From NCBI GenBank assembly GCA_041674765.1, contig JBAYVE010000002.1, positions 113,467-177,466 of the forward strand: a DNA stretch of 64,000 nucleotides, read 5' to 3'. The DNA comes from Patescibacteria group bacterium (lineage in GTDB: Bacteria; Patescibacteriota; UBA1384; XYA2-FULL-43-10; 1-14-0-10-43-13). The translations under genes were made by a program, and so were the position numbers. The notes under the pieces were generated by a model. That model was not told the origin of the DNA and did not search any database. It saw nothing but the letters and a program-made list of their open reading frames with translations. Positions 1,635-34,182 of the stretch are shown one piece after another (the stretch's first letter is position 1; each line of letters opens with the position of its first letter).

Positions 1635-1663
1635 TTGCAATAAAAAGGTGGCTTGTTTATAAT
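1635..1663 (+). promoter_or_regulatory. sigma70-like promoter (TTGCAA-N17-TATAAT)
   Basis: ttgcaa at 1635-1640 and tataat at 1658-1663 with a 17-nt spacer, upstream of the 1710 CDS. Confidence 0.45.
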
Positions 1664-1709
1664 GTAAGAAAGGCGTTTTGTGCCTAAGTTTTTAGTTAGG
1701 AAGGGATCT

Positions 1710-2045
1710 ATGGGCAAAATGACAATTGATGAGTTGGCGATGATTGTTGCTAAAGGATTTGAGGAAATGAGTGCAAAGATTGAATCTGAAGTCTCTTTGG
1801 TTCGAACTGACTTAAGCAATGAGATATCAGCTGTTCGAACTGACTTAAGCAACGAGATATCCTCAGTCAGGATGGATATTCACCGCCTTGATAGCAAGAC
1901 AACATCGATGCAGCAGGACATCGCTTTTATCAGAAAGAGGACGCTGGAAGACGATAATGCCATTGTAGCTGACGTCGTACAATTAACCAAAAAATTGGAT
2001 TCTTTTGATAAAAGAATCACCAAATTGGAAATTGCTAAAGTATAA
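1710..2045 (+). CDS. small coiled-coil protein with an internal tandem repeat (SLVRTDLSNEIS x2.5)
   Basis: The ATG at 1710 is preceded by AGGAAGGG. The track ORF 1680-2045 begins earlier without an RBS. Confidence 0.5.
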   Translation: MGKMTIDELAMIVAKGFEEMSAKIESEVSLVRTDLSNEISAVRTDLSNEISSVRMDIHRLDSKTTSMQQDIAFIRKRTLEDDNAIVADVVQLTKKLDSFDKRITKLEIAKV

Positions 2046-2066
2046 AACTATAAGTTGAGGGGAATA

Positions 2067-4778
2067 ATGGTAAAACTTTCTATTTCGAGAGTCTTTCATC
2101 GACGAAAAAAGATCAGGATTGTGTCGTTACTAGCGTTGATAATTTTGCTGGTTTTCTCATTTCAATTAATGACAAACGGACCAAGACAAACTCATGCTAT
2201 CGGTGAAACTCCCGATAATCCGATTGCTATAACGACTGACGGTTTTGTCCTGAATAACACTTTTTGTCCTGTCGGCAGCGGTAACTATATTGATGGGGGA
2301 GTTTATAACCCAAACGGAGAATTTTCGGGCGTTATTTGTAATAATTCAGTCGAGTTAGCTTCCTTTGGCTGGTATCAAAATAAATGGCAATATATTTATA
2401 AATATATTGAAATCAGAGGTAATATTACAGTCACTCTTTGGGGAACTCTAACTGCCAAGGGATTGACGCTCAAGGATGGGGCAAGTGTCACTCATGCGCC
2501 TCTGGTGTACTATGACAATACTCCCAAACTTGATTATAACAATACGTCATATGGTAATCTTCGGACTCCTGGATACCAGGTTACTGGCACAGAACATGAT
2601 TTCGACCAGAATACTGGGATTTTATCGAGTTTAGGCAGTCTCAAAAAAGTCGAAATCAGTGCGACTGATTTCATCCGAGTCGAGGATGGCAGTAAGCTTG
2701 ATGCAACTGGTCGTGGTTATCCGGGAGGAAATGCCAGTCATGTTGGATATCCTATCAACAACGGCGGCGGTTATCCGACCGTGATATCGGATGCAAACGA
2801 ATACGGCGTAGGGGTTTCCGGCGGCTCACCGGTGGTTGCGGGTGGAAGCGGACGAACTGCGGATGGCAACATTAACACCAGCAATGGGGTTGTCTATAAT
2901 AGCAAAAAGACCCCGACCTATTATGGCGGAGGCGGAGGAGCTGTCATGTATAGCTCGACACTTCAGGCTTTGGGTGGCAACGGCGGCGGTTATATCAAGA
3001 TTTACGGCCAAGGGCGGTTAGAATTGTTTCCAACTGCTCAGATATTAGCAAACGGTACGTCTGGCCTTCCTCAAGCCGGAGGAATTGGCGGCGGCGGCGC
3101 AGGAGGGGCCGGAACTATCGACATTGGCGTCAATACAATAAAATCGGTTCCAACCTTTAGCAAATCCCCGAATGTTGCCGGAGGTGTCTTGATCGGGGCC
3201 AAAAGTTATCCAAACATGACTCTGACACAACTAAGAGGCGGTTCCGGATCACTTACAAACGGAGCACCTTATCTTTTAATCGGTGATATCCAAGCTGTCG
3301 GGGGTAACGCTGTCGTATTAAGCACAAATGCGGCTGTTTCTGGTTATACGGGATCTAGCGGCGCCGGAGGGAGGATTACCATAGCCGGAGCGTATGAACC
3401 TTTATGTGAAATTACAGCCAATAGCGGTTTGACATCTATTCCGGCTCAGTGCGAAGGCAAAGACGTTACGCTAAATGGGCAGAACCAAGATAATTTTTAT
3501 GTTTACGCTGATGGCGTTACAATTTGGCAGCCAGGAGTAACCGGTCAAACCGCCGGAACCGCTTGTAACGATTCGAACAATCAATTTTGCAATACAAAAA
3601 GAGTTTTTAGCAGTTTGACGATTAGTAATAAAGCCATTTTGACTCATCAAGCTGTAAGCATACCGGAGATGTCAAATTCAACGGGAAATTCCTTGGCAAA
3701 TGCCGTCATAGGCACCGGCCGATGGCATAAAGTTGATATAACGACAGCCGGAAATATTAATTTCTCCGGTGGGGGTAAAATCGATGTGTCGAGCAAAGGT
3801 TATCCGGGCGGCACTTCTACCCATCTTCCGGGATATGGAATTGGCGGCGGTGGCGGTCAGCAGATCAATGAAGGAGACTCAGGAATCGGAAGCGGTGGCG
3901 GCGGACATGGTGGTGTTGGTGGTCGGGGTGAGTCTGATGGCGGCTTGACTGCAACTGGAGGGATTTCATATGAAAGCGAGAGTTCACCCGTAGATTTTGG
4001 CTCGGGGGGAGGTTGGGCTAACAATAGTGGCGATGGATCTATTAACGGTGCGCCTGGCGGAGGTAGAGTAAAGCTCGCGATAAATTCTCTGATCATCGGG
4101 ACCGGATGCACTGCTTCTACTTGCGGTGTTTTTGCCAATGGTGGAGACGGAGGTATCAGTGACGGTAGTTATGCTGGTGCTGGTTCGGGCGGGTCTATCT
4201 GGATCGAAGCTGAGGGATCAGTGGCCGGAATAGGGCAGGTAAATGGGGGAACGGGCAAAGAGAACGGCAGCAAAGGAACCTTCGTGTCGGCAAATGTTCT
4301 GATTTCTTCAAACGAATTCTATCTGACGGCAAATGGCGGTAACGCGAGTAATGCCGGCACCCGACGTGGTGGCGGAGGTGGGGGCGGCCGGATTTATCTC
4401 TTAAAACAGATTGAACAGATAAATGCAGTTTCGATTAAGAAAACGCTAAGAGCCCGGTTTAGAGATGGTAGCGGTGAAGCGATTCAATGTCCGGATGTGC
4501 CTAATAGTGACAATAAAAATTGTTTTAATCCTTATGCAATTCGCTACAAAGATACTATCGAGGTTCAGATTGATATTGCCAATCTCAATCTGGAGAAACC
4601 GGTGCTTATTGAGGATGAGTTTCTCAACTTGCATAACGCTTCCGGCACGAAATGTAGTCCCGTGGATGGCCATTATGTCGGTCCGACTCAGCCTATTGTC
4701 AGCGGAAGCAAGTTATCATGGTCATTTGTGCCATCGTACGAGACTGAAGTTTTAAAGTATTGGTGTAAAGTACAATGA
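2067..4778 (+). CDS. large glycine-rich secreted protein (putative beta-helix/adhesin-like surface protein)
   Basis: The ATG at 2067 follows GAGGGG. There is an N-terminal hydrophobic segment. GYPGG and GGxGGxG glycine runs recur throughout. Length is about 900 aa. Confidence 0.6.
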   Translation: MVKLSISRVFHRRKKIRIVSLLALIILLVFSFQLMTNGPRQTHAIGETPDNPIAITTDGFVLNNTFCPVGSGNYIDGGVYNPNGEFSGVICNNSVELASFGWYQNKWQYIYKYIEIRGNITVTLWGTLTAKGLTLKDGASVTHAPLVYYDNTPKLDYNNTSYGNLRTPGYQVTGTEHDFDQNTGILSSLGSLKKVEISATDFIRVEDGSKLDATGRGYPGGNASHVGYPINNGGGYPTVISDANEYGVGVSGGSPVVAGGSGRTADGNINTSNGVVYNSKKTPTYYGGGGGAVMYSSTLQALGGNGGGYIKIYGQGRLELFPTAQILANGTSGLPQAGGIGGGGAGGAGTIDIGVNTIKSVPTFSKSPNVAGGVLIGAKSYPNMTLTQLRGGSGSLTNGAPYLLIGDIQAVGGNAVVLSTNAAVSGYTGSSGAGGRITIAGAYEPLCEITANSGLTSIPAQCEGKDVTLNGQNQDNFYVYADGVTIWQPGVTGQTAGTACNDSNNQFCNTKRVFSSLTISNKAILTHQAVSIPEMSNSTGNSLANAVIGTGRWHKVDITTAGNINFSGGGKIDVSSKGYPGGTSTHLPGYGIGGGGGQQINEGDSGIGSGGGGHGGVGGRGESDGGLTATGGISYESESSPVDFGSGGGWANNSGDGSINGAPGGGRVKLAINSLIIGTGCTASTCGVFANGGDGGISDGSYAGAGSGGSIWIEAEGSVAGIGQVNGGTGKENGSKGTFVSANVLISSNEFYLTANGGNASNAGTRRGGGGGGGRIYLLKQIEQINAVSIKKTLRARFRDGSGEAIQCPDVPNSDNKNCFNPYAIRYKDTIEVQIDIANLNLEKPVLIEDEFLNLHNASGTKCSPVDGHYVGPTQPIVSGSKLSWSFVPSYETEVLKYWCKVQ

Positions 4779-5707
4779 TTCACCGATTGATAACAAAAAT
4801 TATATTTTGGTTATTGTTGATTGTTTTTTTTAGTAATAGTACTGCCAAAGCGGCTGATATGCCAAAGGATATGGCTGTGGGCCAAACCACGGTAACGCAA
4901 GGCGATACGATTACTTTCGGCGGCAATTCGGGTAATTTTTCTGTTTTGAACGATATCAATGCCAGCATGGATTATGGTTTTCAAAATAGTATTTTAAATA
5001 ACAGCGCTTGCTTTGATGTGCCCATCACTCGAGCTGGTTACTGTTTTATTTTGGGTACCGGTCTGACGGGGAACGGTTTAGCCGGATCGAACCGTTTATT
5101 AGTTAGCCGTACATACATTAAGGTTGGCGAGGAAGAAATGGCTGAGTTCTTAGAAACACCGGCTCTTTATCTGGGCGGTACAAATATAACCGGAGATGCG
5201 TATGGCAATGATTATCTGAAAGATTTTTCTTTTTGGGGAAAAAATTTGGCACAGGGCGAAGGACAAACAGGCTCAGTTGATAACGGAGCAACATGGCAGA
5301 TGGAAAACTACTCATTGAATTCCGATGCACAGTCCTCCTGGTTAGACGAGACCGGGCAGGAGGCACAGGTTTTTGAAGATTATCGTGCAAAAATTTCACA
5401 ATTGACTGGTGGCGCCGAATCAATTGACAGTGCAGTTTTGATGGGCCGGAATATCTGGAATCTACAATCATCAGTTCCAAAATTTGGTACTGAAGCTGAT
5501 GGAGGCTCAGAACAAAACAAATTTCCTGATGGCAAAGTTTGGATTGTTGACGCTGGAGGCTCAGAAATTGTGATCAGCCAAGATGTGACATATTATGGCT
5601 TGGGAACCCTTATCGTTAAAAATGGAATTTTCAAAATCGGCGATAATGTGGAGATTTCACCAAATAATCCCAGTACGGATCACTTAGGCATTATGATTAT
5701 AAACTAA
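4775..5707 (+). CDS. secreted hypothetical protein
   Basis: Start overlaps the upstream stop by 4 nt (ATGA). There is a signal-peptide-like N-terminus (LLLIVFFSNSTAKAAD). Confidence 0.55.
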   Translation: MIHRLITKIIFWLLLIVFFSNSTAKAADMPKDMAVGQTTVTQGDTITFGGNSGNFSVLNDINASMDYGFQNSILNNSACFDVPITRAGYCFILGTGLTGNGLAGSNRLLVSRTYIKVGEEEMAEFLETPALYLGGTNITGDAYGNDYLKDFSFWGKNLAQGEGQTGSVDNGATWQMENYSLNSDAQSSWLDETGQEAQVFEDYRAKISQLTGGAESIDSAVLMGRNIWNLQSSVPKFGTEADGGSEQNKFPDGKVWIVDAGGSEIVISQDVTYYGLGTLIVKNGIFKIGDNVEISPNNPSTDHLGIMIIN

Positions 5708-5712
5708 CAAAG

Positions 5713-7326
5713 ATGATGAAAGTAAAAATATTTAATCGGATTGCTACGAGAAAACGGCTTATTGCAATTTCAAGCCTTTCTGGTATCGGCTTGATCGTCG
5801 GTTCGTTTTTGGTTTTTAAATTCATTTTAGCGGCTCCGGGGGGGAGTTTGGCGATTACAAATTTTACTTCTAGCTGGTATTCGCCGCCGGCCACCCAGCG
5901 GATTACACTGACAACAAAGACGGCTGCCATCAATATCACTGATCCTATTGTTTATACCTACTATTGTGACACTAGTCTTAGCAGTCCGTCTGGTAGTGAA
6001 ATCAAGCAACCAGGGGAGGAAAGTCTTTTTTACTGTGTTTACAATACTGTAGGCGATAGGACCGCTCGAGTAACCGCAAGTGCGGAAGGTCTCAGCAACA
6101 GCGCCAGTTTGGTAATAAGTGTTGTTAGTGCGCCAACAAGCGGTTTTAAAAGTGTTAGCTTGACTCCCTCCAAAACGACGGTTGATTATGGAAAAAATGA
6201 TGTTACGCTCCACGCCACTGCTATTAGCGCTAGCGCGGGTTCGTCATCTACTTGTTATCTGTCCCCGGGGGAGTTAAATGGAGACTTCAACCAGATTCCG
6301 ACCCAACAGAGTATTGACGAAAATATCGCCAGAAGTTTTTGGAGAGACACAAAAACATGGCCGTCTGATATTGATAGTTTTGTGGATATTCCCTCGAACT
6401 TGACAGAGAATACTACCTTCAATTTATTTTGCTATTGTGACACATGCGGCAGCAAGCCCGAAAATCTATGGATTGATAAGGTGAATATCGCTGTTAACAC
6501 TGATCCTCCGAGTATTAATTTCTTGATAAATGAACAAGTGGGATCTTTTCAGATCGATGATTCCGCAAATCTAAATCTTCGATGGGCGGCAAGTGGAAAT
6601 TATCTTGACCCTCCGGTATTAGATATTTCCTCTTCTGGAGAATCTACGCTTCCTAACGGAAGCACGTCCAAAATAATTGATCATAGCGAATTAACGGTCG
6701 GTACAAATGTCCTCAAGATCGGTTATAGGTCATCTGTTACACAATCAGTTGTTTGGTCTGAGCCGGTTACTGTGGTTGTTAGCCAATCTCTGCCATATCC
6801 TATTGTCCGGCTATCCTTCTCTGATGACAGTGACCAGAAATCTGTTGATCAGGGAGGACAGGTCGGGGTTGAATGGAATATCACGACGTCTGAAGGAGGA
6901 GAAGTCAATTCCACCGATTATTCTTGCACATGGAAAAATATGACTGGCGGAACGAACTTGCCCCAACCGATAGGCAGTTTAAATTCTGGAACCGTCGAAA
7001 ATATTACCAAAAGCGGCGAGATCACCCTGACCTGTTGGATTTTAAACCATGAAGAGACTACAACCGCCAAGGATAGTATTAAGGTACTTATCAACTCTGC
7101 CCTGGTATTTGGAAAAAACAGTAAATTTCAGGGAGTTGTTTTTTCCGAGGGCACTATCACTATAAATAGTAATTCGGAGTTGAAGGGTTCATTTGTTGGT
7201 AAGGATTTCGATATGACTAGTATGTCAAATATTAATATTTTCTATGATTATAATTTAGATGAGGGATGGCCGCCTGGATTCCGGTATCTGAAAATGCCAT
7301 CGCCAAAAGAAATAGGCAACAGATAG
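5713..7326 (+). CDS. membrane-anchored extracellular hypothetical protein
   Basis: An N-terminal TM segment is followed by a 500-aa Ser/Thr-rich region. The gene sits immediately upstream of the pilus locus. Confidence 0.55.
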   Translation: MMKVKIFNRIATRKRLIAISSLSGIGLIVGSFLVFKFILAAPGGSLAITNFTSSWYSPPATQRITLTTKTAAINITDPIVYTYYCDTSLSSPSGSEIKQPGEESLFYCVYNTVGDRTARVTASAEGLSNSASLVISVVSAPTSGFKSVSLTPSKTTVDYGKNDVTLHATAISASAGSSSTCYLSPGELNGDFNQIPTQQSIDENIARSFWRDTKTWPSDIDSFVDIPSNLTENTTFNLFCYCDTCGSKPENLWIDKVNIAVNTDPPSINFLINEQVGSFQIDDSANLNLRWAASGNYLDPPVLDISSSGESTLPNGSTSKIIDHSELTVGTNVLKIGYRSSVTQSVVWSEPVTVVVSQSLPYPIVRLSFSDDSDQKSVDQGGQVGVEWNITTSEGGEVNSTDYSCTWKNMTGGTNLPQPIGSLNSGTVENITKSGEITLTCWILNHEETTTAKDSIKVLINSALVFGKNSKFQGVVFSEGTITINSNSELKGSFVGKDFDMTSMSNINIFYDYNLDEGWPPGFRYLKMPSPKEIGNR

Positions 7327-7422
7327 TAACTAAAGCCCGAGTTCTAAATATGGTAAGCCTTGTATTAATTTTCAAGTAAAGATAAAATATAAATGACTAC
7401 TGGTTAAGATCTAGGAGGGACA

Positions 7423-8130
7423 ATGGGAGGAACAATTCATGGAGGACAGGCGGCAATGCCAGCGATGGCACAGGTCTCTTCTGACGAATTCACGACCTTT
7501 TCCGACAAAAAGGGGACCAATCTCGGACTACTTTTTTGTTGGTTTGGAGCTATTATCGCACTCATTGCGACTATTTTATTTGGATTGATGCAATATAGCT
7601 CTAATCAGAGGTTGAATACGAAGAAGGGTGAATTAGAGCAGGTTGTTAGTGATATAAACAGCCGTTTTTCCGGTGTGGAAAGTCAGGCCACCTCTTTTAA
7701 ATCTGCTGTTGCCGGGCTTGCAAAAGCCGAAAAAGACAGATACGAAGTCGAGCCCTTTTTAAAAGAACTTTATACTAAAATCAGTAAGAACGTTGTCATC
7801 AGAAACCTTAGTATCAATAGCGATGGTCGGATAAGTATTGACGGTAATACAGATAGTTACCGGTCTGTTGCAGATCAGATGGTCACGTTAAAAGAATGGA
7901 AATCCGGCAAGAAGAATATCCTCAAGAATGTAGAATTGAAAGGGGTCAGTGAAAATATAAATTCTGGTACTCCGATAGTTCAGTTCTCTCTTTCGGCTCA
8001 GATTGACAAAGACGTCTCTCTGGAACTACCGGAGACGGCTGATCTGACAGGTGAAAGTACTGGTGCTGACTCTGAAGCAGATTCTTTGCCCGATATTATG
8101 CTTGATGGAGGTGATGATGCAGAAATCTAA
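7423..8130 (+). CDS. PilN-like type IV pilus assembly protein (bitopic)
   Basis: An AGGAGGG RBS precedes the start. A single TM is followed by a coiled coil and a C-terminal VVIRNLSINSDGRISIDG-type PilN fold signature. Position is 5' of pilO/pilB. Confidence 0.5.
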   Translation: MGGTIHGGQAAMPAMAQVSSDEFTTFSDKKGTNLGLLFCWFGAIIALIATILFGLMQYSSNQRLNTKKGELEQVVSDINSRFSGVESQATSFKSAVAGLAKAEKDRYEVEPFLKELYTKISKNVVIRNLSINSDGRISIDGNTDSYRSVADQMVTLKEWKSGKKNILKNVELKGVSENINSGTPIVQFSLSAQIDKDVSLELPETADLTGESTGADSEADSLPDIMLDGGDDAEI

Positions 8131-8704
8131 TAGAAACCCTCTTAGCGTTTTAACAGCAATTTTATTGATTGGTATTTGCTATATCGTTTCATACATCTTT
8201 TTGATTCCCAAATATACTAGTATCAGACAAGACCTAGCCCAGAAGGAAGCCGAGGTCACGGCGGCTGCGGCAAAGAGAGACTCTTTGGCAAAAAGTAAAG
8301 AGACTCTAAATGGATTAGGAAGCATCGTCGATCAACTGTTTGTTTCAATGCCCATTGATAAAGATGAACCAAACCTAATCGCTGAATTAGAGGCGATTGC
8401 TGCTAAAAATAAGACATATATACCTTCAATACAAATTTCCGATGGCAAAGCAGACATAAATAAAAATCTACTTACAACTGTTTCGTTCTCGGTAAATGGA
8501 TCTTTCTCGGACTTAAACCAATTCATCTCATCTCTAGAGAACAACATTAAATTTTTCTCGATTAAAAGCATGAGCCTGACAACTGCAGGATCCGACGTTG
8601 TCTCCCTCTCAATTTCTATGGATGCTTACCGGTTGCCCGATAACAGTTATTCTCTTTCGACGAGATTGGATCCAAGCAGTTCTTCACAGAATATAATACA
8701 ATAA
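8114..8704 (+). CDS. PilO-like type IV pilus assembly protein
   Basis: In-frame ATG ATG at 8114 overlaps the PilN-like stop. A TM is followed by a coiled coil and a C-terminal domain. The track start at 8051 lacks an RBS. Confidence 0.45.
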   Translation: MMQKSNRNPLSVLTAILLIGICYIVSYIFLIPKYTSIRQDLAQKEAEVTAAAAKRDSLAKSKETLNGLGSIVDQLFVSMPIDKDEPNLIAELEAIAAKNKTYIPSIQISDGKADINKNLLTTVSFSVNGSFSDLNQFISSLENNIKFFSIKSMSLTTAGSDVVSLSISMDAYRLPDNSYSLSTRLDPSSSSQNIIQ

Positions 8705-8712
8705 AGGAAACG

Positions 8713-8988
8713 ATGAAGAAGCAAATAAATTATAAAACACTGGGGATTATAGGGGGGGCATGCATTTTTGCTATTAGTGCTATCTTATTTTACGATCTTT
8801 GGAACAAAACCGTTCCGGAGATTGACTATACTGCTAGAGTCGGCGCTCAATACCAGGTTGTAAATATCGAGAACGAAAAGCAAGAGGCTGAAGAATTAGT
8901 CGCGGGCAAAGAAAATAATGTTCCCATGCCTATTTCACCGCTTTCTGGGGATAAAGTCGGTAAAGAAAACCCTTTTTCTAGTTTATAA
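8713..8988 (+). CDS. small membrane protein in pilus locus (PilP-like position)
   Basis: An AAGGAA RBS precedes the start. There is one TM. Length is 91 aa. Confidence 0.4.
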   Translation: MKKQINYKTLGIIGGACIFAISAILFYDLWNKTVPEIDYTARVGAQYQVVNIENEKQEAEELVAGKENNVPMPISPLSGDKVGKENPFSSL

Positions 8989-8998
8989 GAGATAAAAA

Positions 8999-11389
8999 AT
9001 GGATACCCAGGCGGAAAACTATTATAATTTTAGTAATAATCTTTTAGCTGACCAGTCGATTCTGGATGTTTTTGTTTTGCAAAACTTAATTGACCAGGAT
9101 GACGCAGGTAGAATCAAGAAACGGTATAAAACCAACAGAGAAATCGAGGATTTTCTTATAAAAAATAATATTGTTACTGCAGATACGATCAACAAGGCTT
9201 ATAGTATTATTTTGAAACTTCCGTTCATTGAAATCAAAAATGTGGAAATACCCGATAGTTTAAAAAGTGTAATTCCATTTAAGATTGCCAGAAAATTTGG
9301 GATCATCCCTTTTTCAATAGAGGATGGAATTATCAGACTCGCAGTATCGAGACCTTCGGACTTGCTGGTCGGATACCAATCAAGTATTGCCAAAATCATC
9401 AATCAAAAGAAACTGGAAGTTGAAATTTTCATCACGGGTGAGAGCGATTTTCGTGAGGCCTTAAGTCAATACAATCTGAAGGCCGATAAGCTATTGATGA
9501 AAAAAGGAAGTTTGCCGGTGGTTTATCTCCGCAATCAGCTGATACCCGATTCTTTTTTGAACAAGATTCCAGTCGAATTTATCTCAAAATATAGGATGGT
9601 AGTCTTCGGTCAGAATCATAAAGGAACCTATTTTCTCGCTTCTGCGCAACCAGACTCTCCGATTACTTTAAAAATTGTTGACTTTATAAAAAGGGAAAAC
9701 AATATAGATATCGAAGTGTTTGCGACTTCCAAGGAGGATATCGATTATGTTTTAGAGCAGATTGGAAAAGAAAAATCCTCTAAAATAGTGCCCGAAAAGA
9801 AACCTCTCAGCCGGCCGACTACTGTAATCAATGTAGAGCCTCAACCGGAGGAGCCGGTTGAAGACAAGGGCTCGATAAGGGATATCTTAGATTCTATTTT
9901 TAGTCCTGAACCTCAAGTTACTATCGATTCAGTTATCTCGAATGATCCGAATAACAAAAGTGACGAAGCTAGTGTACCGGAGAAAAATCTTATACAGGAG
10001 CCTGTGAAACAAGAACCAAAACATACCGATTATCAGGCAGACCAGATAAGCATAAATCAAAGTGAATCCAAGACAGAGCTCAAAAAGACCGATGAGAATG
10101 TAAACAACGACAACGATACCAAAGAAGCCAATATCGGTTCGCTTATTGAAACAGAGATCACCACTTTGGAGATGCTCAATAAGTCTGTAGCTAGCTCTTC
10201 TGTTCCAAAAGTTGTGGCAGCAATTATCAATTTTGCGTTGAATAGCAGAGCATCAGATATACATATTGAGCCTGAAAGCAAGATATTGCGTGTAAGATGC
10301 CGGATCGATGGGGTTTTGCGTGACATTGTTAAGTTGCCGCTCGCAATACACCCGCCGATGATCAGCAGAGTAAAGATTATGGCTAAATTAAAAATCGATG
10401 AGGCGAGAGTGCCTCAAGACGGCCGTTTTGATATTATTTTCAAGAGCAAGGAAGTTGATGTCCGAGTTTCGACTCTTCCGACTGTAAACGGAGAGAAAAT
10501 CGTGATGAGACTTTTAGACAAGAGTCAGGGTATCCTGTCGCTGGAAGATCTCGGAATGCAGGGTAGCGCTTTTCTGGCAACAAATGAGGCAATCAAAAAG
10601 CCGTATGGTATTGTCCTTTCTACCGGCCCGACAGGCTCAGGCAAATCAACCACACTTTATGCGATTTTAAACAGGATAAGCATTCCGGGTGTCAATATTG
10701 TTACACTAGAGGACCCTGTCGAATATGAAATTAAAGGTGTCAATCAGTGCCAAATCAAGCCTGAAATAGGTTTCACCTTCGCAACGGGGCTTCGTAGCAT
10801 CTTGCGTCAGGACCCCAATATTATTATGGTAGGTGAAATACGTGATGCTGAAACTGCTGGGATGGCTACTCATGCGGCGCTGACAGGGCACCTAGTTCTT
10901 TCGACGCTTCATACAAACGATACGGCAGGAGCATTGCCGAGAATGATAAACATGGGAGTAGAACCTTTTCTCATCACTTCTTCAATAAATCTAGTGATTG
11001 CTCAGCGTCTTGTCAGACGGATCTGTCCCAAATGTCGTGAAGAAATGAAGGTTCCACAGAAATTGATGGATGAGATTAAAACAGAAATGGCTAAAATCTC
11101 ACCCAAAAATATTGAGGATAGAAAGCGAATTCCTGCCGATTTCAAGCTTTATTATGGTAAAGGATGTTCGGAATGTGATCATGGCTATAAAGGCAGAATA
11201 GGTATCTTCGAAGTGATGCAGATTACACCGGAAATAGAGGAACTGGCAATCGCCAAAAAACCTGCAAGCGAGATCAAAGAAGCAGCAATACGGGACGGGA
11301 TGATAACAATGAAGCAGGATGGTATCATAAAAGCTTTCTTGGGTCAGACTAGTATCGATGAAGTTTTTCAGGCGGTTATCAATAACTAG
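8999..11389 (+). CDS. pilB: type IV pilus assembly ATPase PilB (GspE family) with a long low-complexity insertion
   Basis: An N-terminal GspE-N domain is present. The Walker A motif is GPTGSGKSTT. It also has the GEIRD…TGHLVLSTLHTN motif and a tetracysteine cluster (CPKC…CSECD). At 796 aa it is about 200 aa longer than typical PilB. Confidence 0.9.
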   Translation: MDTQAENYYNFSNNLLADQSILDVFVLQNLIDQDDAGRIKKRYKTNREIEDFLIKNNIVTADTINKAYSIILKLPFIEIKNVEIPDSLKSVIPFKIARKFGIIPFSIEDGIIRLAVSRPSDLLVGYQSSIAKIINQKKLEVEIFITGESDFREALSQYNLKADKLLMKKGSLPVVYLRNQLIPDSFLNKIPVEFISKYRMVVFGQNHKGTYFLASAQPDSPITLKIVDFIKRENNIDIEVFATSKEDIDYVLEQIGKEKSSKIVPEKKPLSRPTTVINVEPQPEEPVEDKGSIRDILDSIFSPEPQVTIDSVISNDPNNKSDEASVPEKNLIQEPVKQEPKHTDYQADQISINQSESKTELKKTDENVNNDNDTKEANIGSLIETEITTLEMLNKSVASSSVPKVVAAIINFALNSRASDIHIEPESKILRVRCRIDGVLRDIVKLPLAIHPPMISRVKIMAKLKIDEARVPQDGRFDIIFKSKEVDVRVSTLPTVNGEKIVMRLLDKSQGILSLEDLGMQGSAFLATNEAIKKPYGIVLSTGPTGSGKSTTLYAILNRISIPGVNIVTLEDPVEYEIKGVNQCQIKPEIGFTFATGLRSILRQDPNIIMVGEIRDAETAGMATHAALTGHLVLSTLHTNDTAGALPRMINMGVEPFLITSSINLVIAQRLVRRICPKCREEMKVPQKLMDEIKTEMAKISPKNIEDRKRIPADFKLYYGKGCSECDHGYKGRIGIFEVMQITPEIEELAIAKKPASEIKEAAIRDGMITMKQDGIIKAFLGQTSIDEVFQAVINN

Positions 11390-11453
11390 CCTATTTGCAA
11401 GTTTGTGACTTTGCAATAAAATAAAAGAGATATAATCAAGAAATTGGAGGGAA

Positions 11454-12521
11454 ATGGTTGATACAAATAAAACAGAGATTGCTAAATATCTGGATTACGC
11501 AATTGCGAAAAACGCGTCAGACGTACATATCACTGTCGGTGTCCCCGGGACTGTCCGCATCGATGGAAAGTTGGCGCCTATCCCCGATGCACAAATAATT
11601 ACTGATGAGAAAGCCGTTGAATTAATTAAAACATTTACCCCACCGGAGCTGCTTCTAGCTCTGAAGCAAAAAAGAGAGATTGATTTTTCTTTTGGTTATC
11701 AGAGTATGCGCTTTCGGGCCAACGCTTATTATCAGAAGGGTTCTTTATCTGCCTCCCTCAGGTTGATCCCCAAAGATCTGCGTAGTTTTACCGATTTGGG
11801 GCTTCCACCGATTCTAGAAAAATTCACAGAACCAAATCAGGGTTTTGTTATTATCACCGGCCCCACCGGCTCGGGGAAGTCGACCACTCTAGCGGCTCTG
11901 ATAAATAAAATAAACACCGAAAAGAAAAAGCATATTGTGACCATTGAAGATCCGATCGAATATGTTTTCGAGCATCGCGAGAGTCTAGTCTCTCAGCGAG
12001 AAGTCGGATCTGACACAAATTCTTTTGCCAGAGCTTTGAGATCTGCCCTGAGAGAAGATCCAGATGTTGTTCTGGTAGGGGAGATGCGTGATCTGGAGAC
12101 AATCGAGGCTGCCTTGACATTGGCCGAGACGGGACATTTGGTTTTCACTACTCTCCATACCAATTCGGCGGCTCAAACTGCAGACCGTATTATCTCTGTC
12201 TTTCCACCACATTTACAACAGCAAATATCAAGTCAGCTCGCCTCAGTTTTGTTAGGTGTTGTTTCACAGAGACTTGTGCCAAAAATTGGCGGGGGACGGG
12301 TGCTTGCATGTGAAATAATGATCGCAAACCCAGCGATCAAAAGTTTGATCCGTGACGGTAAGACATATCAAATTCCAAATGTTATTCAAACCTCCGCTTC
12401 TGAGGGTATGATCAGTCTGGATAAGGTCCTGGCCGAATACGTATCACGTGGTGATGTTCAGCTCGAGGAAGCCTTGAATTACTCTGTCGATCCTAAGAGC
12501 TTCAAAATGATGGTATACTAA
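11454..12521 (+). CDS. pilT: twitching-motility retraction ATPase PilT
   Basis: Carries the GPTGSGKSTT Walker A, EDPIEYVF and GEMRDLETI…TGHLVFTTLHTN motifs. Length is 355 aa. Confidence 0.9.
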   Translation: MVDTNKTEIAKYLDYAIAKNASDVHITVGVPGTVRIDGKLAPIPDAQIITDEKAVELIKTFTPPELLLALKQKREIDFSFGYQSMRFRANAYYQKGSLSASLRLIPKDLRSFTDLGLPPILEKFTEPNQGFVIITGPTGSGKSTTLAALINKINTEKKKHIVTIEDPIEYVFEHRESLVSQREVGSDTNSFARALRSALREDPDVVLVGEMRDLETIEAALTLAETGHLVFTTLHTNSAAQTADRIISVFPPHLQQQISSQLASVLLGVVSQRLVPKIGGGRVLACEIMIANPAIKSLIRDGKTYQIPNVIQTSASEGMISLDKVLAEYVSRGDVQLEEALNYSVDPKSFKMMVY

Positions 12522-12582
12522 ATAAGAATTACAGTTTCAATTTCTGGTTCAGTTTCATGTTATAAATTATAAGGTTAATCAG

Positions 12583-13785
12583 ATGCCAAAATTCCTCTAT
12601 AAGGCAAAGAACAGTAAAGGTGAGATAGTCACCGGAACTGTCAAGGCCTCTACTTCTCAGGAAGCAGAGAATATTTTAGTTAAGCACAATCTTGTTGCAA
12701 CTGAGCTTATCATAGAAAAGAGAACGTCTTGGGAAAAGTTTTCAATCAGGAAAGTATCTGCCAGGGATAAAGCAGTTTTTTCCCGACAAATGGCTACGAT
12801 GCTGAATGCGGGACTTTCACTTACCAAGACAGTCAGCGTGATTGCGAAACAGACTCAGAGCGATAAGATAAGACAAATATTTTTAGATGTTTATAATGAT
12901 CTGGAGGAAGGCTATAGTTTATCTTCTGCGATGTCTCGCCACCCAGAGGCCTTCGATCGTGTGTATGTTAGTGTTGTTAATTCCGGTGAAGCGACAGGCA
13001 AACTGGATTTAGTTTTGAATGAGATGGCCAATGAACTGGAAAATGATAGCCAATTCATGTCAAAAGTCAAATCCTCCCTTTATTATCCGGCATTTATTCT
13101 AATATGTTTAATTGCCGCCGGTATTTTCATGCTGACGTTTGTAATTCCTAAACTGAAATCGATGTTTGAGAGCGCGCAGCAACAGTTACCAATTTTGACA
13201 AGAATTTTGATTTTTGTCTCAAACGCTTTGGTAAATTGGTGGTGGCTGATTATCATACTTTTTATCGGGATTGTAATCGCTGTTAGATTTTGGTCCACTA
13301 CAGAAGCAGGCGCGCGTTTCATGCATAATATGCAACTTACATTGCCGGGGATATCTACAATTTTTACAGGTATGTACATGTATAGATTCAATCGAATACT
13401 TTCGATGTTAATCGGTGCCGGTGTACCTTTGCTTGATGCCTTAAGGATTGCCGGCTCAGTAATTAATAACGTTGTTTATGAAGAAAGTATTATGAATGTG
13501 GCGGCGCAAGTGGAAAAGGGTGTCGCTTTATCAAATCAACTTGAGAAAGAGGCCTTTTTCCCTCCTCTTGTTAGCCAAATGGTTGCAGTTGGGGAGGAAA
13601 CCGGTGAGCTAGACAAAATTCTATCCAAGCTGGCAGATTATTATGAACAGAGTACAAATGATGTCACAAAAGCAATAAGTTCCGTAATAGAACCAGCCGT
13701 CTTGGTCTTGGTCGGTATTGGAGTTGCTTTTATGGTGTTTGCAATTTATCTGCCAATCTATCAATTAAATCAAGTCATAAGCTAG
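12583..13785 (+). CDS. pilC: type IV pilus inner-membrane platform protein PilC (GspF family)
   Basis: 400 aa with two GspF repeats and three TM blocks. Confidence 0.9.
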   Translation: MPKFLYKAKNSKGEIVTGTVKASTSQEAENILVKHNLVATELIIEKRTSWEKFSIRKVSARDKAVFSRQMATMLNAGLSLTKTVSVIAKQTQSDKIRQIFLDVYNDLEEGYSLSSAMSRHPEAFDRVYVSVVNSGEATGKLDLVLNEMANELENDSQFMSKVKSSLYYPAFILICLIAAGIFMLTFVIPKLKSMFESAQQQLPILTRILIFVSNALVNWWWLIIILFIGIVIAVRFWSTTEAGARFMHNMQLTLPGISTIFTGMYMYRFNRILSMLIGAGVPLLDALRIAGSVINNVVYEESIMNVAAQVEKGVALSNQLEKEAFFPPLVSQMVAVGEETGELDKILSKLADYYEQSTNDVTKAISSVIEPAVLVLVGIGVAFMVFAIYLPIYQLNQVIS

Positions 13786-13847
13786 CTAAAAAGGACAGGT
13801 CGATCAGCTACAGAAATAATTATCAAATATTTAATATTGGAGGAAGA

Positions 13848-14258
13848 ATGCAGAAGAAATTTAATGGCTTTACTTTAATCGAACTTCTAGTTGTCATTGC
13901 AATTATCGGAATATTAGCCACAATTATCATTTTTAATTTTGGGAATGCAACTCAAAAGGCCAAGCGTGCAGCAGCGATAGAGAATTTAAACAATTCAATT
14001 AAAACCGCTCGAGCCTGTTTGGTTGGTGACGATTATTTGATACCCAAGGGTAATGTCGCAAAACCTGGGGACAAGATTTGCAATAGTGGCTCTGATGCCA
14101 CATGGCCGGTATTGAAGGGATATTATTATAAAGTCCTAATCAATGCAGACGGTGATGATTTTGGAAGTGCTAACCCATTTACTATTTATCAGGGCGAGTC
14201 TCCAACTGGCACCACCATTTCGACTGATTTTACCTGTACCAGTTATGGGTGTAAGTAG
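13848..14258 (+). CDS. pilA: type IV (major) pilin, prepilin-type N-terminus
   Basis: GGAGGAAG RBS. The GFTLIELLVVIAIIGILA class-III signal has Glu at +5. Confidence 0.8.
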   Translation: MQKKFNGFTLIELLVVIAIIGILATIIIFNFGNATQKAKRAAAIENLNNSIKTARACLVGDDYLIPKGNVAKPGDKICNSGSDATWPVLKGYYYKVLINADGDDFGSANPFTIYQGESPTGTTISTDFTCTSYGCK

Positions 14259-14703
14259 ATATCTTAAGGGATTTCTGGCATTGGAGTTTTTGTTATCGGC
14301 AGCAATCATTTGTGTATTGTTGGGCATAACATTTATCGGGGTGGATAATTCGCTCCGGTCCAGGAGGGATACTATCCGCAGAGACAATCTTCATGCGTTG
14401 AAAATTGCGATAGATATAAGCTTTGGAGTTGATATCGACGGGGTTAAAAAAGCCGGTTCTTACTATGCTGCTGAGACTCCAGTAGAAGTTTCATCGCTGA
14501 CATGGTTAGCTCCGGCCTACATCCCAACTATACCTCCAGACCCAAAAAAGAATGGTTATCTTTATCAAACAGATAGCGAAGGTAAAGTCTTCGCTGTTTA
14601 CGCAAAACTCGAAGACAATTCCAATACCGATCTTAAAAGTTCAGGCCCTTTTCCGGAATGGAAATTACCAGACGGTTTCAACTATTGGCTAAAAAATAAT
14701 TAA
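14245..14703 (+). CDS. minor pilin-like protein
   Basis: The in-frame ATG at 14245 overlaps the pilA 3' end. KGFLALEFLLSAAIICVLL has G-F-x-x-x-E spacing. The track ORF starts at 14143, inside pilA. Confidence 0.5.
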   Translation: MGVSRYLKGFLALEFLLSAAIICVLLGITFIGVDNSLRSRRDTIRRDNLHALKIAIDISFGVDIDGVKKAGSYYAAETPVEVSSLTWLAPAYIPTIPPDPKKNGYLYQTDSEGKVFAVYAKLEDNSNTDLKSSGPFPEWKLPDGFNYWLKNN

Positions 14704-14714
14704 ACAAGAGGCTT

Positions 14715-15482
14715 ATGGCTCTTACTTACAATATAATTCTATTTATACTGGGATTGACGGTCGGGTCATTTTTGAATGTGGTTATCTCGCGTATGGACGA
14801 ATTAAAAACAATTCTGACCGGGCGTTCTCATTGTCCGATATGCAAAGAAATGCTTTCATGGTATGAAATGATACCTTTATTATCCTTCTTGCTTCTTCGA
14901 GGAAAATGTAGGCATTGTGGAGTTAAAATATCTCTGCAATATCCAATTGTAGAGATAGTAACCGGTATTTTGTTTTTGATACTTTTTCAGTTCTTCGGAC
15001 TAAGCTTCGCTCTTCTTTTCTATCTGATACTTTTCTCAGTATTGATTGTGATTTTTGTCTATGATTTGCAAACTAACCAGACGCCTGAATATTTTGCTTG
15101 GTTTGCGCTGTTATTTGCTTTGATTTTCGGCTGGTACTTTACTGGATTGTCTTTTAGTCAGACGCTTTTTGGCGGACTGATATCCGGCGGGGTCCTGGCG
15201 TTTTTGGTGTACGGATCAGGTGAGAGGTGGATGGGCAAGGGGGATATCAAGATTGGAGCAATAATTGGTTTGTTGGCAGGGCCGAAGGGTGCGGTGTTAG
15301 GTTTGTTTATGGCCTTTGTGCTGGGTGCAATCATCAGCGTATTATTTTTATCGCTGAAAAAGAAGACCATGAAAGAGAGCCTCCCCTTTACACCTTTTTT
15401 GATTATATCAGCGCTGATTACTCTTCTTTATGGAAATTATATCATCAGCTGGTATACAGGTAACTTTTTCAGTTTTTATTAG
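14715..15482 (+). CDS. pilD: prepilin peptidase / N-methyltransferase PilD (A24 family)
   Basis: The N-terminus has CPxC…CxxC zinc-binding pairs. There are about eight TM segments and the protein is glycine-rich. Confidence 0.85.
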   Translation: MALTYNIILFILGLTVGSFLNVVISRMDELKTILTGRSHCPICKEMLSWYEMIPLLSFLLLRGKCRHCGVKISLQYPIVEIVTGILFLILFQFFGLSFALLFYLILFSVLIVIFVYDLQTNQTPEYFAWFALLFALIFGWYFTGLSFSQTLFGGLISGGVLAFLVYGSGERWMGKGDIKIGAIIGLLAGPKGAVLGLFMAFVLGAIISVLFLSLKKKTMKESLPFTPFLIISALITLLYGNYIISWYTGNFFSFY

Positions 15483-15492
15483 GAGGTCGATA

Positions 15493-16002
15493 TTGGTTAA
15501 AGCGGAGGCATATACTTTAATAGAACTGTTGATCGTGATAGTCATAATAAGCTTGACTATCGCTTTCGGTATTCCTGCTTTTTCTGAATATGGCAAGAAG
15601 GTGGAATTTAATCAAAAGATTGGTGAGGTCAAAGAGTTAATAAGTCAAGTCCGTCTTCTGGCCAAAAATCCCTCGAAAGATGGTAATTTTTACCAGGTTA
15701 GTCATATCCCTGAATCCGGTTTTGTTTTGGAGAGCTGCCAGGATTTTATTAATAAAGTTTGTACGGATAGAAAAAAGATTAGGGAAGTGAAATTCAACGA
15801 GTTTGAGTCTGTGCCGCCAAACTATGCCACCCTGGCCTATATCTGCCCCGCGAACTTATCTCAAGGCTGTAGTTATTATTACACTGGCAGCGATATTATT
15901 AATGATCCGATCCTGACTTTTCAGAACGCAGAGTTTCAGAAGATAGTTAGATTTCTGCTGAAGAATGACGGTTCGGTAATTGAAGAAATTACAAATCTAT
16001 GA
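15493..16002 (+). CDS. pilin-like protein with non-canonical Ala at the cleavage position (AYTLIELLIV)
   Basis: The TTG at 15493 lies 8 nt after AGGAGG. The prepilin-like hydrophobic helix has Glu at +5. Confidence 0.5.
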   Translation: MVKAEAYTLIELLIVIVIISLTIAFGIPAFSEYGKKVEFNQKIGEVKELISQVRLLAKNPSKDGNFYQVSHIPESGFVLESCQDFINKVCTDRKKIREVKFNEFESVPPNYATLAYICPANLSQGCSYYYTGSDIINDPILTFQNAEFQKIVRFLLKNDGSVIEEITNL

Positions 16003-16673
16003 AGCAAGATATCTCCAAAAAAAATGGTTTTGGCATCATTGAAGTACTAGTAGCCGCAACAATTATAATAGTGATCTTGGCAGCTTTGACTTCCGTCGGA
16101 AAGGCGGCCCTGACAAACAATTCCTCTCTTCAGGAAAGATCAAATGCTATCTATCTGGCTCAGGAGGGTTTAGAGATAGTAAGACAGATCAGAGATTCCA
16201 ATTGGATAGACGATCAGGGTAATAATGCAGTCGGTATCGACGGTCAATCCAGAAATTCTGAGTGGCATGATCTTACTTTTGATGAGAACAGAAAAATGCT
16301 CAGGGAGGTGACTATTTCAAATACGGGGGTTGTTAACCCCAATTTAAGCCATTGTTATGCTATAGGTTTTATCAATGATGGTTTAGCTACAAATCGTTTT
16401 GCTTTGATCAACGAAGGTTTATGCGAATTGTATGACAAAAAAGAGATTGTTGATTTGAATATAATCGGCCAGCAATCAAAAAAGATTTCATTCAATCGTC
16501 ATATAAGAATCGAGGCAACGGGAGGTTTAATTCCGTCATTACCCAATGGCACAAACCAGCTTTTCGATGTTCATACTGAGCAAAATGCCCTGAAAATAAC
16601 TTCGATCGTTGAATGGAAAAATAGGAAGGTCGAGACTAGCGAGATTCTGACAAACTGGCGTCCGAATTATTAA
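15999..16673 (+). CDS. minor pilin-like protein (PilV/PilW-like)
   Basis: Start overlaps the upstream stop (ATGA). The motif is NGFGIIEVLVAATIII. Confidence 0.6.
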   Translation: MKQDISKKNGFGIIEVLVAATIIIVILAALTSVGKAALTNNSSLQERSNAIYLAQEGLEIVRQIRDSNWIDDQGNNAVGIDGQSRNSEWHDLTFDENRKMLREVTISNTGVVNPNLSHCYAIGFINDGLATNRFALINEGLCELYDKKEIVDLNIIGQQSKKISFNRHIRIEATGGLIPSLPNGTNQLFDVHTEQNALKITSIVEWKNRKVETSEILTNWRPNY

Positions 16674-16702
16674 CAGCTGTCCAGAGCAGGAGAAAACGTT
16701 CA

Positions 16703-17515
16703 ATGAAAAAAAATCAAAATATGAAAGCTTTTACCTTACTTGAGGTCTTAATAGCAACCGCAATTTTTGCCTCAGTTATGGTGATTGTAAGTATAGTTGT
16801 GATGCAAAGCTCCAATATCAGCATGAAGCTAAAGGCTGAGAGGGATGTCAACGAAGAGAGCAGCCGCATTGGCGATATCTTAAGCAGAGATATCAAGTCT
16901 GCAAGAAATGCTGTGAATATTACAATTGATAATATTTGCGATATCACAACGGGAGTTTGCGACGCAAGTCCCAAGACGTTTGAATACAAATCTGGACTAG
17001 CGCTTTTTTCGATGACCGCCGATGAGAAGATATACAAAAGTTACAGCAGTGCCCCCGAAAGTTATGACCATTTTATTGCCCCAACCAATTTTTCTGCCTT
17101 TGAAAAAAGTCTTTTAGTCATCTCCGGCAATCAGCTTCAGGGAGAAACGCTCAATTCAATCTTTATCGTCTATCTGGCGAAGAAAGATATTATGGATGTT
17201 TCCGGACAAACAGAGTATTCAAATGGAAAGTTATATAGAACTGTGATACCTGCTGATTCTTCATATAGTATAAACATAAGTCAATTTTCTAATTTTGAAA
17301 AGGACGAAAACCTTGTGTCAGGAAACGATGAATCATCAATAATCTCCTTTTATGGCTATGCTCCGGGTGAGGGCAGTTGTCTGGAGCAAAGCTGGTGCAA
17401 ACAGCAACCGTATATAGGCTTTTTGCTGCAGATTGATACAATCGAGCAAAGCCAATATAGGAAGGCGACAGCCATACTTCGTTCTCTCATAACCGTTAGA
17501 AACTATAATATATAA
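16703..17515 (+). CDS. minor pilin-like protein
   Basis: AGGAGA RBS. The motif is KAFTLLEVLIATAIF. Confidence 0.6.
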   Translation: MKKNQNMKAFTLLEVLIATAIFASVMVIVSIVVMQSSNISMKLKAERDVNEESSRIGDILSRDIKSARNAVNITIDNICDITTGVCDASPKTFEYKSGLALFSMTADEKIYKSYSSAPESYDHFIAPTNFSAFEKSLLVISGNQLQGETLNSIFIVYLAKKDIMDVSGQTEYSNGKLYRTVIPADSSYSINISQFSNFEKDENLVSGNDESSIISFYGYAPGEGSCLEQSWCKQQPYIGFLLQIDTIEQSQYRKATAILRSLITVRNYNI

Positions 17516-17581
17516 CTTGTTTTAATATCTTGCTTTGGATATTATTAGACCAGTGTTTACAAAATAGCGAAAGGGCAAATA

Positions 17582-18571
17582 GTGAATCGAATATTCTCGG
17601 GCATTAAACCAACTGGACTCTTGCATATTGGTAATTATTTTGGTGCTATCAAGCAATGGGTTGATCTTGCAAAGGAGTCTAGCCAATCGGTTTTTTGTAT
17701 TGTTGATCTACACGCTATTACAGTTCCGGAAGAGCCGAGTGAATTAGCCCACAATACTCTATCAATCGCTGCCTGGTATCTAGCCGCTGGTATTGATCCA
17801 GATAAATCTATTGTTTTTGTCCAATCAACAAGACCTGAGCATTCTGAATTAGCTTGGATTTTGAACTGTCAGACCAAGATGGGGGAACTTTCTCGGATGA
17901 CTCAATTCAAAGATAAAATGTCAGGAGGATCAGCAGAAGCAGCAGGCGTAGGCCTATTTGATTATCCTGTGTTAATGGCGGCGGATATTTTGTTATACAA
18001 TACGGATAAGGTACCGGTAGGACAGGATCAAAAGCAACACGTGGAATTGACTAGAGACTTGGCGATTAGATTTAATAATAAATTTGGTGAGACATTTGTT
18101 ATCCCAGAACCGGTTATCACCAAGACCGGAGCCAGGATTATGGGGCTGGATAATCCATTGAAGAAAATGAGCAAAACGGCTGTTACTCCTTTGAATTACA
18201 TCGCTTTGACCGATGATGAAGACAGTATTCGGGAAAAGTTGAAAAAAGCAGTGACAGATTCTGGCGCTGAAATCAAAGCCGTTCCAGGAAAGCCCGCACT
18301 TACAAATTTACTAAATATATTTAGTGAAGTTTCGGGTAAAACTGTCGTCGAAATTGAAGAACAATTCGAACACTCTGGTTATGGAGAATTCAAAAGTTCC
18401 CTCGCCGAGGCGATTATCGAATATTTAAAGCCGGTCAGAAAAAGGTATGATGATTTAATCAGCGATCACGAGGAGTTAAAAAAGATTTTGAAAAGAGGTA
18501 GTGACAAAGCCGCACCTATAGCCGAGAAAACCCTTAAGCAAGTTAAAGAAAAGATAGGATTGGGAATATAA
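17582..18571 (+). CDS. trpS: tryptophanyl-tRNA synthetase
   Basis: GTG start. Carries the HIGN (HIGH) and KMSKT motifs. Length is 329 aa. Confidence 0.9.
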   Translation: MNRIFSGIKPTGLLHIGNYFGAIKQWVDLAKESSQSVFCIVDLHAITVPEEPSELAHNTLSIAAWYLAAGIDPDKSIVFVQSTRPEHSELAWILNCQTKMGELSRMTQFKDKMSGGSAEAAGVGLFDYPVLMAADILLYNTDKVPVGQDQKQHVELTRDLAIRFNNKFGETFVIPEPVITKTGARIMGLDNPLKKMSKTAVTPLNYIALTDDEDSIREKLKKAVTDSGAEIKAVPGKPALTNLLNIFSEVSGKTVVEIEEQFEHSGYGEFKSSLAEAIIEYLKPVRKRYDDLISDHEELKKILKRGSDKAAPIAEKTLKQVKEKIGLGI

Positions 18572-34176: not shown

Positions 34177-34182
34177 ATTGTG

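Follow-up and report, generated by a model that had tools for sequence, protein, structure and literature searches.

A type IV pilus locus without a PilM gene, with a modular PilB and mixed Ala/Gly prepilin sites, from the Candidate Phyla Radiation

Composition of the pilus locus

We analysed a 64-kb stretch of DNA (hereafter the window) that forms part of a 222-kb metagenome contig of a Patescibacteria group bacterium in the ENA, and that carries a type IV pilus locus between positions 7423 and 17515. The locus consists of twelve tightly packed genes, all on the plus strand, with spacings of -14 to +66 nt and intact open reading frames (ORFs), in the order PilN, PilO, a 91-aa membrane protein, PilB, PilT, PilC, PilA, a second pilin, PilD and three minor pilins. 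This gene order on a single strand had been read from the sequence in the original prediction, and was borne out by Pfam identifications and by gene calls made independently for the source contig, which gave the same starts, including the ATG at 14245, the TTG at 15493 and the PilO start at 8117. Scanning positions 1500 to 18000 for promoters and terminators gave counts near those expected from shuffled sequence and showed no clear terminator between genes of the locus.

The nearest relatives of the PilB protein (53-64% identity) were found in Candidatus Berkelbacteria metagenome-assembled genomes and unclassified Patescibacteria, and its identity to PilB of true Saccharibacteria was 45-50% in the ATPase core. 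The six closest relatives (L001 to L006) and five more distant genomes of sister lineages (L051 to L055) are referred to below, together with the window, as the clade. Synteny from PilN onward was conserved in all six closest relatives, and from the upstream gene sec907 through trpS (tryptophanyl-tRNA synthetase) was complete or nearly so in L002 to L004. The block comprising the secreted-protein genes sec310 and sec537, the genes from PilN to the three terminal pilins, and then trpS and RNase H was for the most part syntenic in the six relatives, with some of the contigs ending before the upstream genes; the same gene order was repeated in the five more distant genomes. A comparison with Saccharibacteria pilus loci, which had been suggested at the outset, did identify a counterpart in Saccharibacteria type IV pilus locus one (T4P-1), although the closest relatives proved to be the Berkelbacteria genomes.

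For the core machinery, hidden Markov model searches placed both PilN and PilO above the Pfam gathering thresholds. PilN (7423..8130, 235 aa; PF05137, 31.4 bits against a cutoff of 22.8) consists of around 35 cytoplasmic residues, one transmembrane segment, the PilN domain and an acidic tail, and is followed by PilO (8117..8704, 195 aa; PF04350, 31 bits against a cutoff of 22), which additionally gave a weak match to GspM. The retraction ATPase PilT (11454..12521, 355 aa; T2SSE, E=1.5e-50) shared 74-84% identity with its orthologues in the relatives, and contains the sequence AIKSLIRDGK, resembling the PilT signature AIRNLIRE. The platform protein PilC (12583..13785, 400 aa) contains two T2SSF domains (E=5e-58), and PilD (14715..15482) has the two domains of a bifunctional prepilin peptidase (A24_N_bact, E=2e-33; Peptidase_A24, E=3e-11). 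Among the parts of a type IVa pilus (T4aP) in its monoderm or Candidate Phyla Radiation (CPR) form, we thus identified PilB, PilT, PilC, PilD, pilins, PilN and PilO, and did not find PilM in the window or the 10 kb upstream of it.

The small single-transmembrane protein encoded at 8713..8988 (91 aa) could be assigned to no family, and lies invariably between PilO and PilB. An alignment of six orthologues revealed a conserved C-terminal motif, (V/I)G(R/K)(D/E)NPF(A/S), whose core GR(D/E)NPF(A/S) only loosely recalls the RD(MILF)N(FYW)FS motif of monoderm PilN (PMC6916266). We considered a role as PilP and rejected it, as no Pfam family, PilP (PF04351) included, was matched at E<=10 by any of nine proteins, namely eight clade orthologues and the Saccharibacteria protein encoded at the same position.

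Pilins and their processing sites

The five pilin-like genes previously noted at this locus were confirmed, and a six-frame scan for the class III signal peptide motif gave no others. In all five, a hydrophobic stretch comes after a processing motif that has Gly or Ala at position -1 and Glu at +5; the Pfam N_methyl family was significant for PilA, and at or below its cutoff for three of the others. PilA (13848..14258), the probable major pilin, has the leader MQKKFNG|FTLIELL (N_methyl, E=2.2e-9) and a pair of cysteines at its C-terminus (CTSYGC). According to the gene call, the next gene, pln152 (14245..14703), begins within pilA and shares its last 14 nt; the product of pln152 carries the leader MGVSRYLKG|FLALEF. 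This protein falls below N_methyl detection, and shows a weak resemblance to GspG along its whole length (TIGR01710, E=2.8e-4, residues 8-126).

The three minor pilins follow PilD. The first, pln169 (15493..16002), starts with TTG, has the leader MVKAEA|YTLIELL and resembles GspH, ComGD and PpdA through sub-threshold NCBIfam matches; the second, pln224 (15999..16673), has the leader MKQDISKKNG|FGIIEVL, a sub-threshold N_methyl match and weak matches to GspI and PilV, and was found in all six closest relatives. The third, pln270 (16703..17515), has the leader MKKNQNMKA|FTLLEVL, an N_methyl score of 21.2 bits, exactly at the cutoff, and weak matches to GspJ and ComGE. Assigning minor pilins through solved structures was attempted and rejected, with pln224 and pln270 lacking a match in the PDB and pln152 giving one weak and irrelevant match (E=0.67).

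Two of the processing sites had been described as atypical in the original prediction. The TTG at 15493 lies directly after the PilD stop codon and has an AGGAGG box 6 nt upstream, so that the leader MVKAEA|YTLIELL, with a genuine Ala at -1, is supported; however, this is not the only such gene, as the Ala at -1 of pln270 (16703) had been overlooked. The sequence KGFLALEF of pln152 is not atypical in its Gly at -1, Phe at +1 and Glu at +5, and only its positions +2 to +4 are unusual. Both sites fall within the known prepilin motif (A/G)X4(D/E) (PMC3244431). The possibility that unusual leaders reflect mis-called starts was likewise not upheld, given the agreement of the independent gene call and the AGGAGG box.

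Across the six closest relatives, the residue at -1 of the pilins was Ala in 19 cases and Gly in 16, and orthologues switch between the two. The orthologues of pln169 have the site KA|Y in three relatives (L001, L002 and L006), SA|Y in one (L005) and CG|Y in another (L003), and those of pln152 carry the canonical leader K(A/G)|FTLIELL (L001, L002, L004 and L006). The Ala sites are real and typical of the lineage, with no sign of mis-called starts. According to a major review, leaders in bacteria "invariably" have Gly as their last residue (PMC4471445); ComGC of Streptococcus pneumoniae has been shown experimentally to be cleaved after Ala and N-methylated (PMC3694846), and shares with the window sites, as these are read from sequence, the Ala at -1, Phe at +1 and Glu at +5. 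It differs in belonging to a Com system, which lacks PilN, PilO and PilT, whereas the locus in the window mixes Ala and Gly prepilins that interchange between orthologues. About half of the pilins of this clade would escape pilin finders that demand Gly at -1.

PilB architecture and the absence of PilM

The extension ATPase PilB (8999..11389, 796 aa) contains a tetracysteine motif, a T2SSE domain (PF00437, E=2.5e-127) and two MshEN matches (PF05157). In an AlphaFold 2 model, built from an alignment of 16 sequences, residues ~15-159 (9041..9475) form a complete GSPII/MshEN domain, consisting of a helical bundle and an alpha/beta subdomain (predicted local distance difference test score, pLDDT, ~90). 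Foldseek searches with this domain returned the GSPII-A domain of Thermus thermophilus PilF as the top match (E=3.5e-8), followed by the N-terminal domains of MshE, Xanthomonas citri PilB and XpsE. Residues ~170-261 (9506..9781) form an extra MshEN-type alpha/beta domain of ~90 aa, identified from the alignment, from the model (pLDDT ~90) and from a PF05157 match on the excised segment (E=1.3e-5). An acidic linker follows at residues 253-377 (9755..10129; 125 aa, 76% polar, net charge -11), the disordered stretch in the model spanning residues ~261-383 (pLDDT ~30), and precedes the N2 and C-terminal ATPase domains at residues 399-790 (10193..11368), which cover positions 5-369 of the 370 in the T2SSE profile. 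The linker measures 125-172 aa in the relatives and holds a conserved short motif, K(G/S)xI..LDS..PExTIDSV, and a further motif, NLGSLI, comes after it.

It had been proposed that PilB carries an additional low-complexity region of ~200 aa. The protein is indeed ~210 aa longer than Saccharibacteria PilB (584 aa), but only the linker is disordered, and the rest is a folded domain. The Saccharibacteria protein lacks the second alpha/beta domain and the 125-aa linker. We additionally observed that the tetracysteine (CxxC...CxxC) zinc motif, found in PilB of the window and of the clade, is missing from Saccharibacteria PilB (L008, L016, L024 and L025 compared).

When residues 1-400 of PilB were used as the query, most of the proteins retrieved were 390-450 aa long and had MshEN as their only domain type. 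In the sister lineages the N-terminal module has a gene of its own, and the ATPase gene that directly follows it is of 405-544 aa; the free-standing module gene encodes 396-451 aa, contains MshEN-type domains only, and has a third MshEN-like domain. The split loci lie at 7311-10287 in L051, 10001-12846 in L052, 444-3044 in L053, 9232-12568 in L054 and 6131-8917 in L055, with a 23S rRNA intervening sequence protein gene between the module gene and the ATPase gene in L054. Because the module is a separate gene in these lineages, the apparent insertion in the window PilB is, on the sequences compared, the joint of two modules that exist apart elsewhere. Thermus PilF, which has three GSPII domains (PMC11731258), similarly has multiple GSPII-type domains ahead of the ATPase and a tetracysteine motif. 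It differs in that the window PilB has one full GSPII domain, one alpha/beta subdomain and a long disordered linker, and in that PilF works with PilM, while the N-terminal module is a separate gene in the sister lineages of the clade.

We also considered regulation of PilB by cyclic di-GMP (c-di-GMP), for which the binding motif, (R/K/L)LGxx(L/V/I)(L/V/I)xxG(L/V/I)(L/V/I)xxxxLxxxxLxxQ, occurs in two copies in the helical bundle (PMC11731258). In PilB residues 1-330, the best-matching segment retained 5 of 11 key positions and both bundle Gly positions were missing. Regulation of this kind was rejected, since the MshEN binding motif is not conserved although the fold is kept, and this is a further difference from PilF.

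We found no PilM and no secretin, as originally predicted. Neither PilM (PF11104) nor a secretin was matched by Pfam among the window ORFs of at least 110 aa or among the gene calls of the 10 kb upstream, so that neither lies just beyond the upstream edge of the window; likewise, neither a PilQ/GspD secretin nor PilP/GspC was matched in the window or the upstream flank. A tblastn search with Saccharibacteria PilM found nothing in the window or in L001 to L006, at a sensitivity that detected PilM homologues of 21-28% identity in divergent loci, and PilM was absent from the Pfam-annotated gene calls of the pilus loci and flanks of L051 to L055. PilM was therefore missing from all twelve clade loci (the window and eleven relatives, with fetched flanks of up to 10 kb per side). 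By comparison, of the 37 Saccharibacteria-type loci fetched, 36 have a PilM gene at a distance of 2.5-3.5 kb upstream of PilB, and one (L045) ends before that position is reached.

The PilN proteins differ accordingly between the two sets of loci. Where PilN adjoins PilM, it begins with M(Y/F)EI(S/N)LVPD or MSIKINLIPE, corresponding to the INLLP-type peptide that binds PilM, whereas an alignment of clade PilN proteins shows variable N-termini without such a peptide. This argues for a genuine loss of PilM in the clade rather than its relocation. The absence of PilM and a secretin had been taken as consistent with a monoderm envelope, and this holds for the secretin; it does not hold for PilM, which is cytoplasmic, present and essential in monoderm T4aP (PMC6916266), and retained in the 36 Saccharibacteria-type loci. 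A monoderm envelope thus offers no explanation for its absence. Table S5 of a study of CPR pili (PMC12206443) was consulted for PilM in Berkelbacteria, and the available part contains no Berkelbacteria entry.

Neighbouring genes, function and alternative explanations

Three genes on the plus strand immediately upstream of PilN encode proteins with N-terminal signal or anchor sequences, as read from the translations. The first, sec907 (2067..4778), encodes a secreted Gly-rich protein, matches no Pfam or NCBIfam family, and has orthologues in the same position in L002, L003, L004, L051, L052, L054 and L055. Its family is conserved at both ends, with the N-terminal anchor M.K.SIS..L..RRK.R followed by an AxA site, and the C-terminus ...Y(Y/W)C(K/R/T)V(Q/E), and is variable in between, being Gly-rich in the window and a Kelch propeller in L052.

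The other two genes belong to a second family that adjoins PilN, defined by a signal peptide, the sequence LPE(V/I)MVGQ near the mature N-terminus, a beta-helix-like core and the C-terminal sequence GSFVA...RFYYDY.LD..WPPGFRYLNMP. The family consensus identifies sec310 (4775..5707) as its N-terminal and core part, with a signal peptide ending ...STAKA|ADMPKDMAVGQ and the motifs FPDGKVW and TYYGLGTLIV. The adjacent gene, sec537 (5713..7326), encodes ~400 aa without detectable relatives and then the C-terminal module of the family, GSFVGKDF...YDYNLDEGWPPGFRYLKMP. This module matches the end of DUF7305 below threshold (Pfam, E=3e-4) and resembles ice-binding-like beta-helix domains; a literature search found no papers on DUF7305. 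The gene caller places the start of sec537 at 5848; with the ATG at 5713 as its start, the protein would gain a membrane anchor. An exhaustive search of 1.84 billion representatives found only 103 clusters that share the C-terminal ~80 aa of the family, and no relatives of the first ~400 residues of sec537; a word-indexed search with sec537 returned the protein itself and no other. The family is encoded by two genes in the window (4775-7326), L002 (4812-8173) and L004 (6398-8275), and by a single gene in L003 (6630-7796) and L051 to L055. Inserts of Laminin_G_3 were identified in 13 of 50 members, and others contain VWA, FG-GAP, PKD or subtilase domains; none of the members has a pilin motif.

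It was originally suggested that these three proteins are pilus-associated adhesins. Their secretion signals and their position beside the pilus genes in at least nine related genomes, with lectin, VWA or propeller modules in the relatives, are in keeping with this suggestion. A pilus-linked role in adhesion may thus be considered plausible but unproven for both families, because of their conserved ends, swappable binding modules and fixed synteny.

We additionally identified several features elsewhere in the window. A cluster of dprA (27900-28910), topA and recR, DNA-processing genes relevant to natural transformation, occupies 27900-32126, around 10 kb downstream of the pilus locus. Genes for 23S rRNA intervening sequence proteins (PF05635) occur in the window at 34180-34536, and in relatives at varying sites within or next to the pilus loci (L003, 7842-8225; L051, 14144-14515; L052, 16692-17063; L054, 10536-10907 and 16941-17303), and appear to be mobile or repeatedly inserted. 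A 3164-aa ORF on the plus strand (44622-54116), with fn3, Rax2-type beta-propeller, InlB B-repeat and CarboxypepD_reg domains, lies between rplA (43572-44423) and rplJ (54565-55083), so that a giant surface protein gene is inserted in the conserved L11-L1-L10 ribosomal cluster; ribosomal protein L1 itself (43572-44423, plus strand) has a Lys/Glu-rich N-terminal extension of ~80 aa ahead of the L1 domain. Long ORFs without a Pfam family were found at 36352-38450, 57264-58766, 60169-61017 and 61163-63778 (minus strand), in stretches with a G+C content of 0.46-0.50, compared with ~0.41 elsewhere, and an altered GC skew, and the last of these, of 871 aa, is not among the called genes on record. 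No tRNA genes or Rfam families were detected at threshold in the whole 64 kb.

We conclude, with a probability of about 0.8, that the region encodes the machine for a retractile, type IVa-like pilus, intact and probably organised as an operon, in a single-membrane, Berkelbacteria-like CPR bacterium, and that it is the counterpart of Saccharibacteria T4P-1. The T4P-1 locus of Nanosynbacter lyticus TM7x has the same content, with clustered PilN, PilO, a small protein, PilB, PilT, PilC, PilD and five pilins and no secretin, and its pilus is essential and appears to drive twitching (PMC12206443). In CPR genomes more widely, type IV pilus components co-localise and PilQ is absent (PMC6744442). TM7x-type loci differ in having PilM directly upstream of a PilN with an INLLP-like start, neither of which occurs in the window or the clade, and in TM7x the adhesion modules are fused to the minor pilins PilX1 and PilX2, while the window encodes separate Sec-type secreted proteins. 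The monoderm T4aP of Streptococcus sanguinis and Clostridium similarly combine a single membrane, a compact locus, PilN and PilO without PilP or PilQ, retraction by PilT, and lectin or VWA modules for adhesion (PMC6916266). They differ in their requirement for PilM (fused to PilN in C. difficile), in a PilO much larger than PilN, and in having the adhesion modules grafted onto pilins. As the locus is the CPR counterpart of Saccharibacteria T4P-1, the kind of system is already known; what is new is the PilM-less locus, the modular PilB and the mixed Ala/Gly prepilin cleavage site, the locus being otherwise as expected of any CPR genome.

From the families represented, PilD would cleave and N-methylate the five prepilins after Gly or Ala at -1, and PilB, working on the PilC platform and held by a ring of PilN and PilO, would polymerise PilA. 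The GspH/I/J-like minor pilin set, typed through weak matches, may prime or cap the fibre, and PilT would retract it. By analogy with the Saccharibacteria pilus, host-cell attachment and twitching are likely roles, and DNA uptake is possibly a further one.

Several points weigh against this interpretation. The pilus is known in this organism from its genes alone, and attachment, motility and DNA uptake are attributed to it by analogy only. The typing of the minor pilins as H, I and J is weak, consisting of sub-threshold matches that are dominated by the N-terminal helix, with no PDB sequence match for pln224 or pln270. Finally, PilM could be encoded elsewhere, as the analysis covers ~74 kb out of the 222 kb of the contig and, in the relatives, the flanks that were fetched.

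This last point leads to an alternative, that of an ordinary CPR T4aP in which PilM is encoded elsewhere and only the gene arrangement differs. PilM is reported to be well conserved across Patescibacteria (PMC12206443, PMC6744442), and our coverage of each genome extends to the window and a further 10 kb, or to flanks of up to 10 kb per side for the relatives. However, in small CPR genomes these genes usually stay close to one another (PMC6744442), the twelve PilM-less clade loci contrast with the Saccharibacteria-type loci, and the INLLP-type motif, kept wherever PilM adjoins PilN, is missing from clade PilN, so that we regard relocation as rather unlikely. A dedicated competence (Com-type) pilus for DNA uptake, rather than for adhesion or motility, is suggested by the Ala at -1 shared with streptococcal ComGC (PMC3694846), by weak NCBIfam matches to ComGC, ComGD, ComGE and ComGF, by the dprA gene 10 kb downstream (27900-28910) with recR and topA nearby, and by the natural transformability of CPR bacteria (PMC12206443). 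It is nonetheless improbable, because the locus has PilN, PilO and PilT, which Com systems lack, because its matches to Com families score below threshold and lie only in the shared N-terminal helix, and because the gene content is that of TM7x T4P-1, which is linked to twitching (PMC12206443). As T4aP can serve both functions, a competence role would in any case narrow the reading of the locus as a T4aP more than replace it.

We consider it very improbable that the locus encodes a pseudopilus resembling that of type II secretion, with the secreted proteins encoded upstream as its exported cargo, despite the weak matches to GspG, GspH, GspI, GspJ and GspM and the conserved position of those proteins immediately upstream. 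No secretin, GspC or GspL was found in the window, the PilT retraction ATPase is present, and with a single-membrane envelope and ordinary Sec-type signals on the upstream proteins no second-step exporter is needed. Returning to a retractile T4aP-like machine, one may speculate that the pilus of this clade is truly independent of PilM, and that the enlarged GSPII-type N-terminal module of PilB, which is fused through the linker in the window and free-standing with three such domains in the sister lineages, tethers the motor to the PilN/PilO/PilC complex instead; this tethering model is tentative, and we judge it to be quite unlikely as it stands.

For ultra-small CPR bacteria, type IV pili are central to locating and holding host cells and to acquiring DNA. 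The manner in which PilM, PilN and PilO link the motor in the cytoplasm to the polymerisation of pilins is an open question (PMC6916266), for which a lineage that keeps PilN and PilO without PilM, and in which the N-terminal module of the motor is either fused or separate, represents a compact comparative system. If the pilus is indeed PilM-independent, the clade would be a natural experiment that separates the "adaptor" from the "motor" parts of the type IV filament ATPase.

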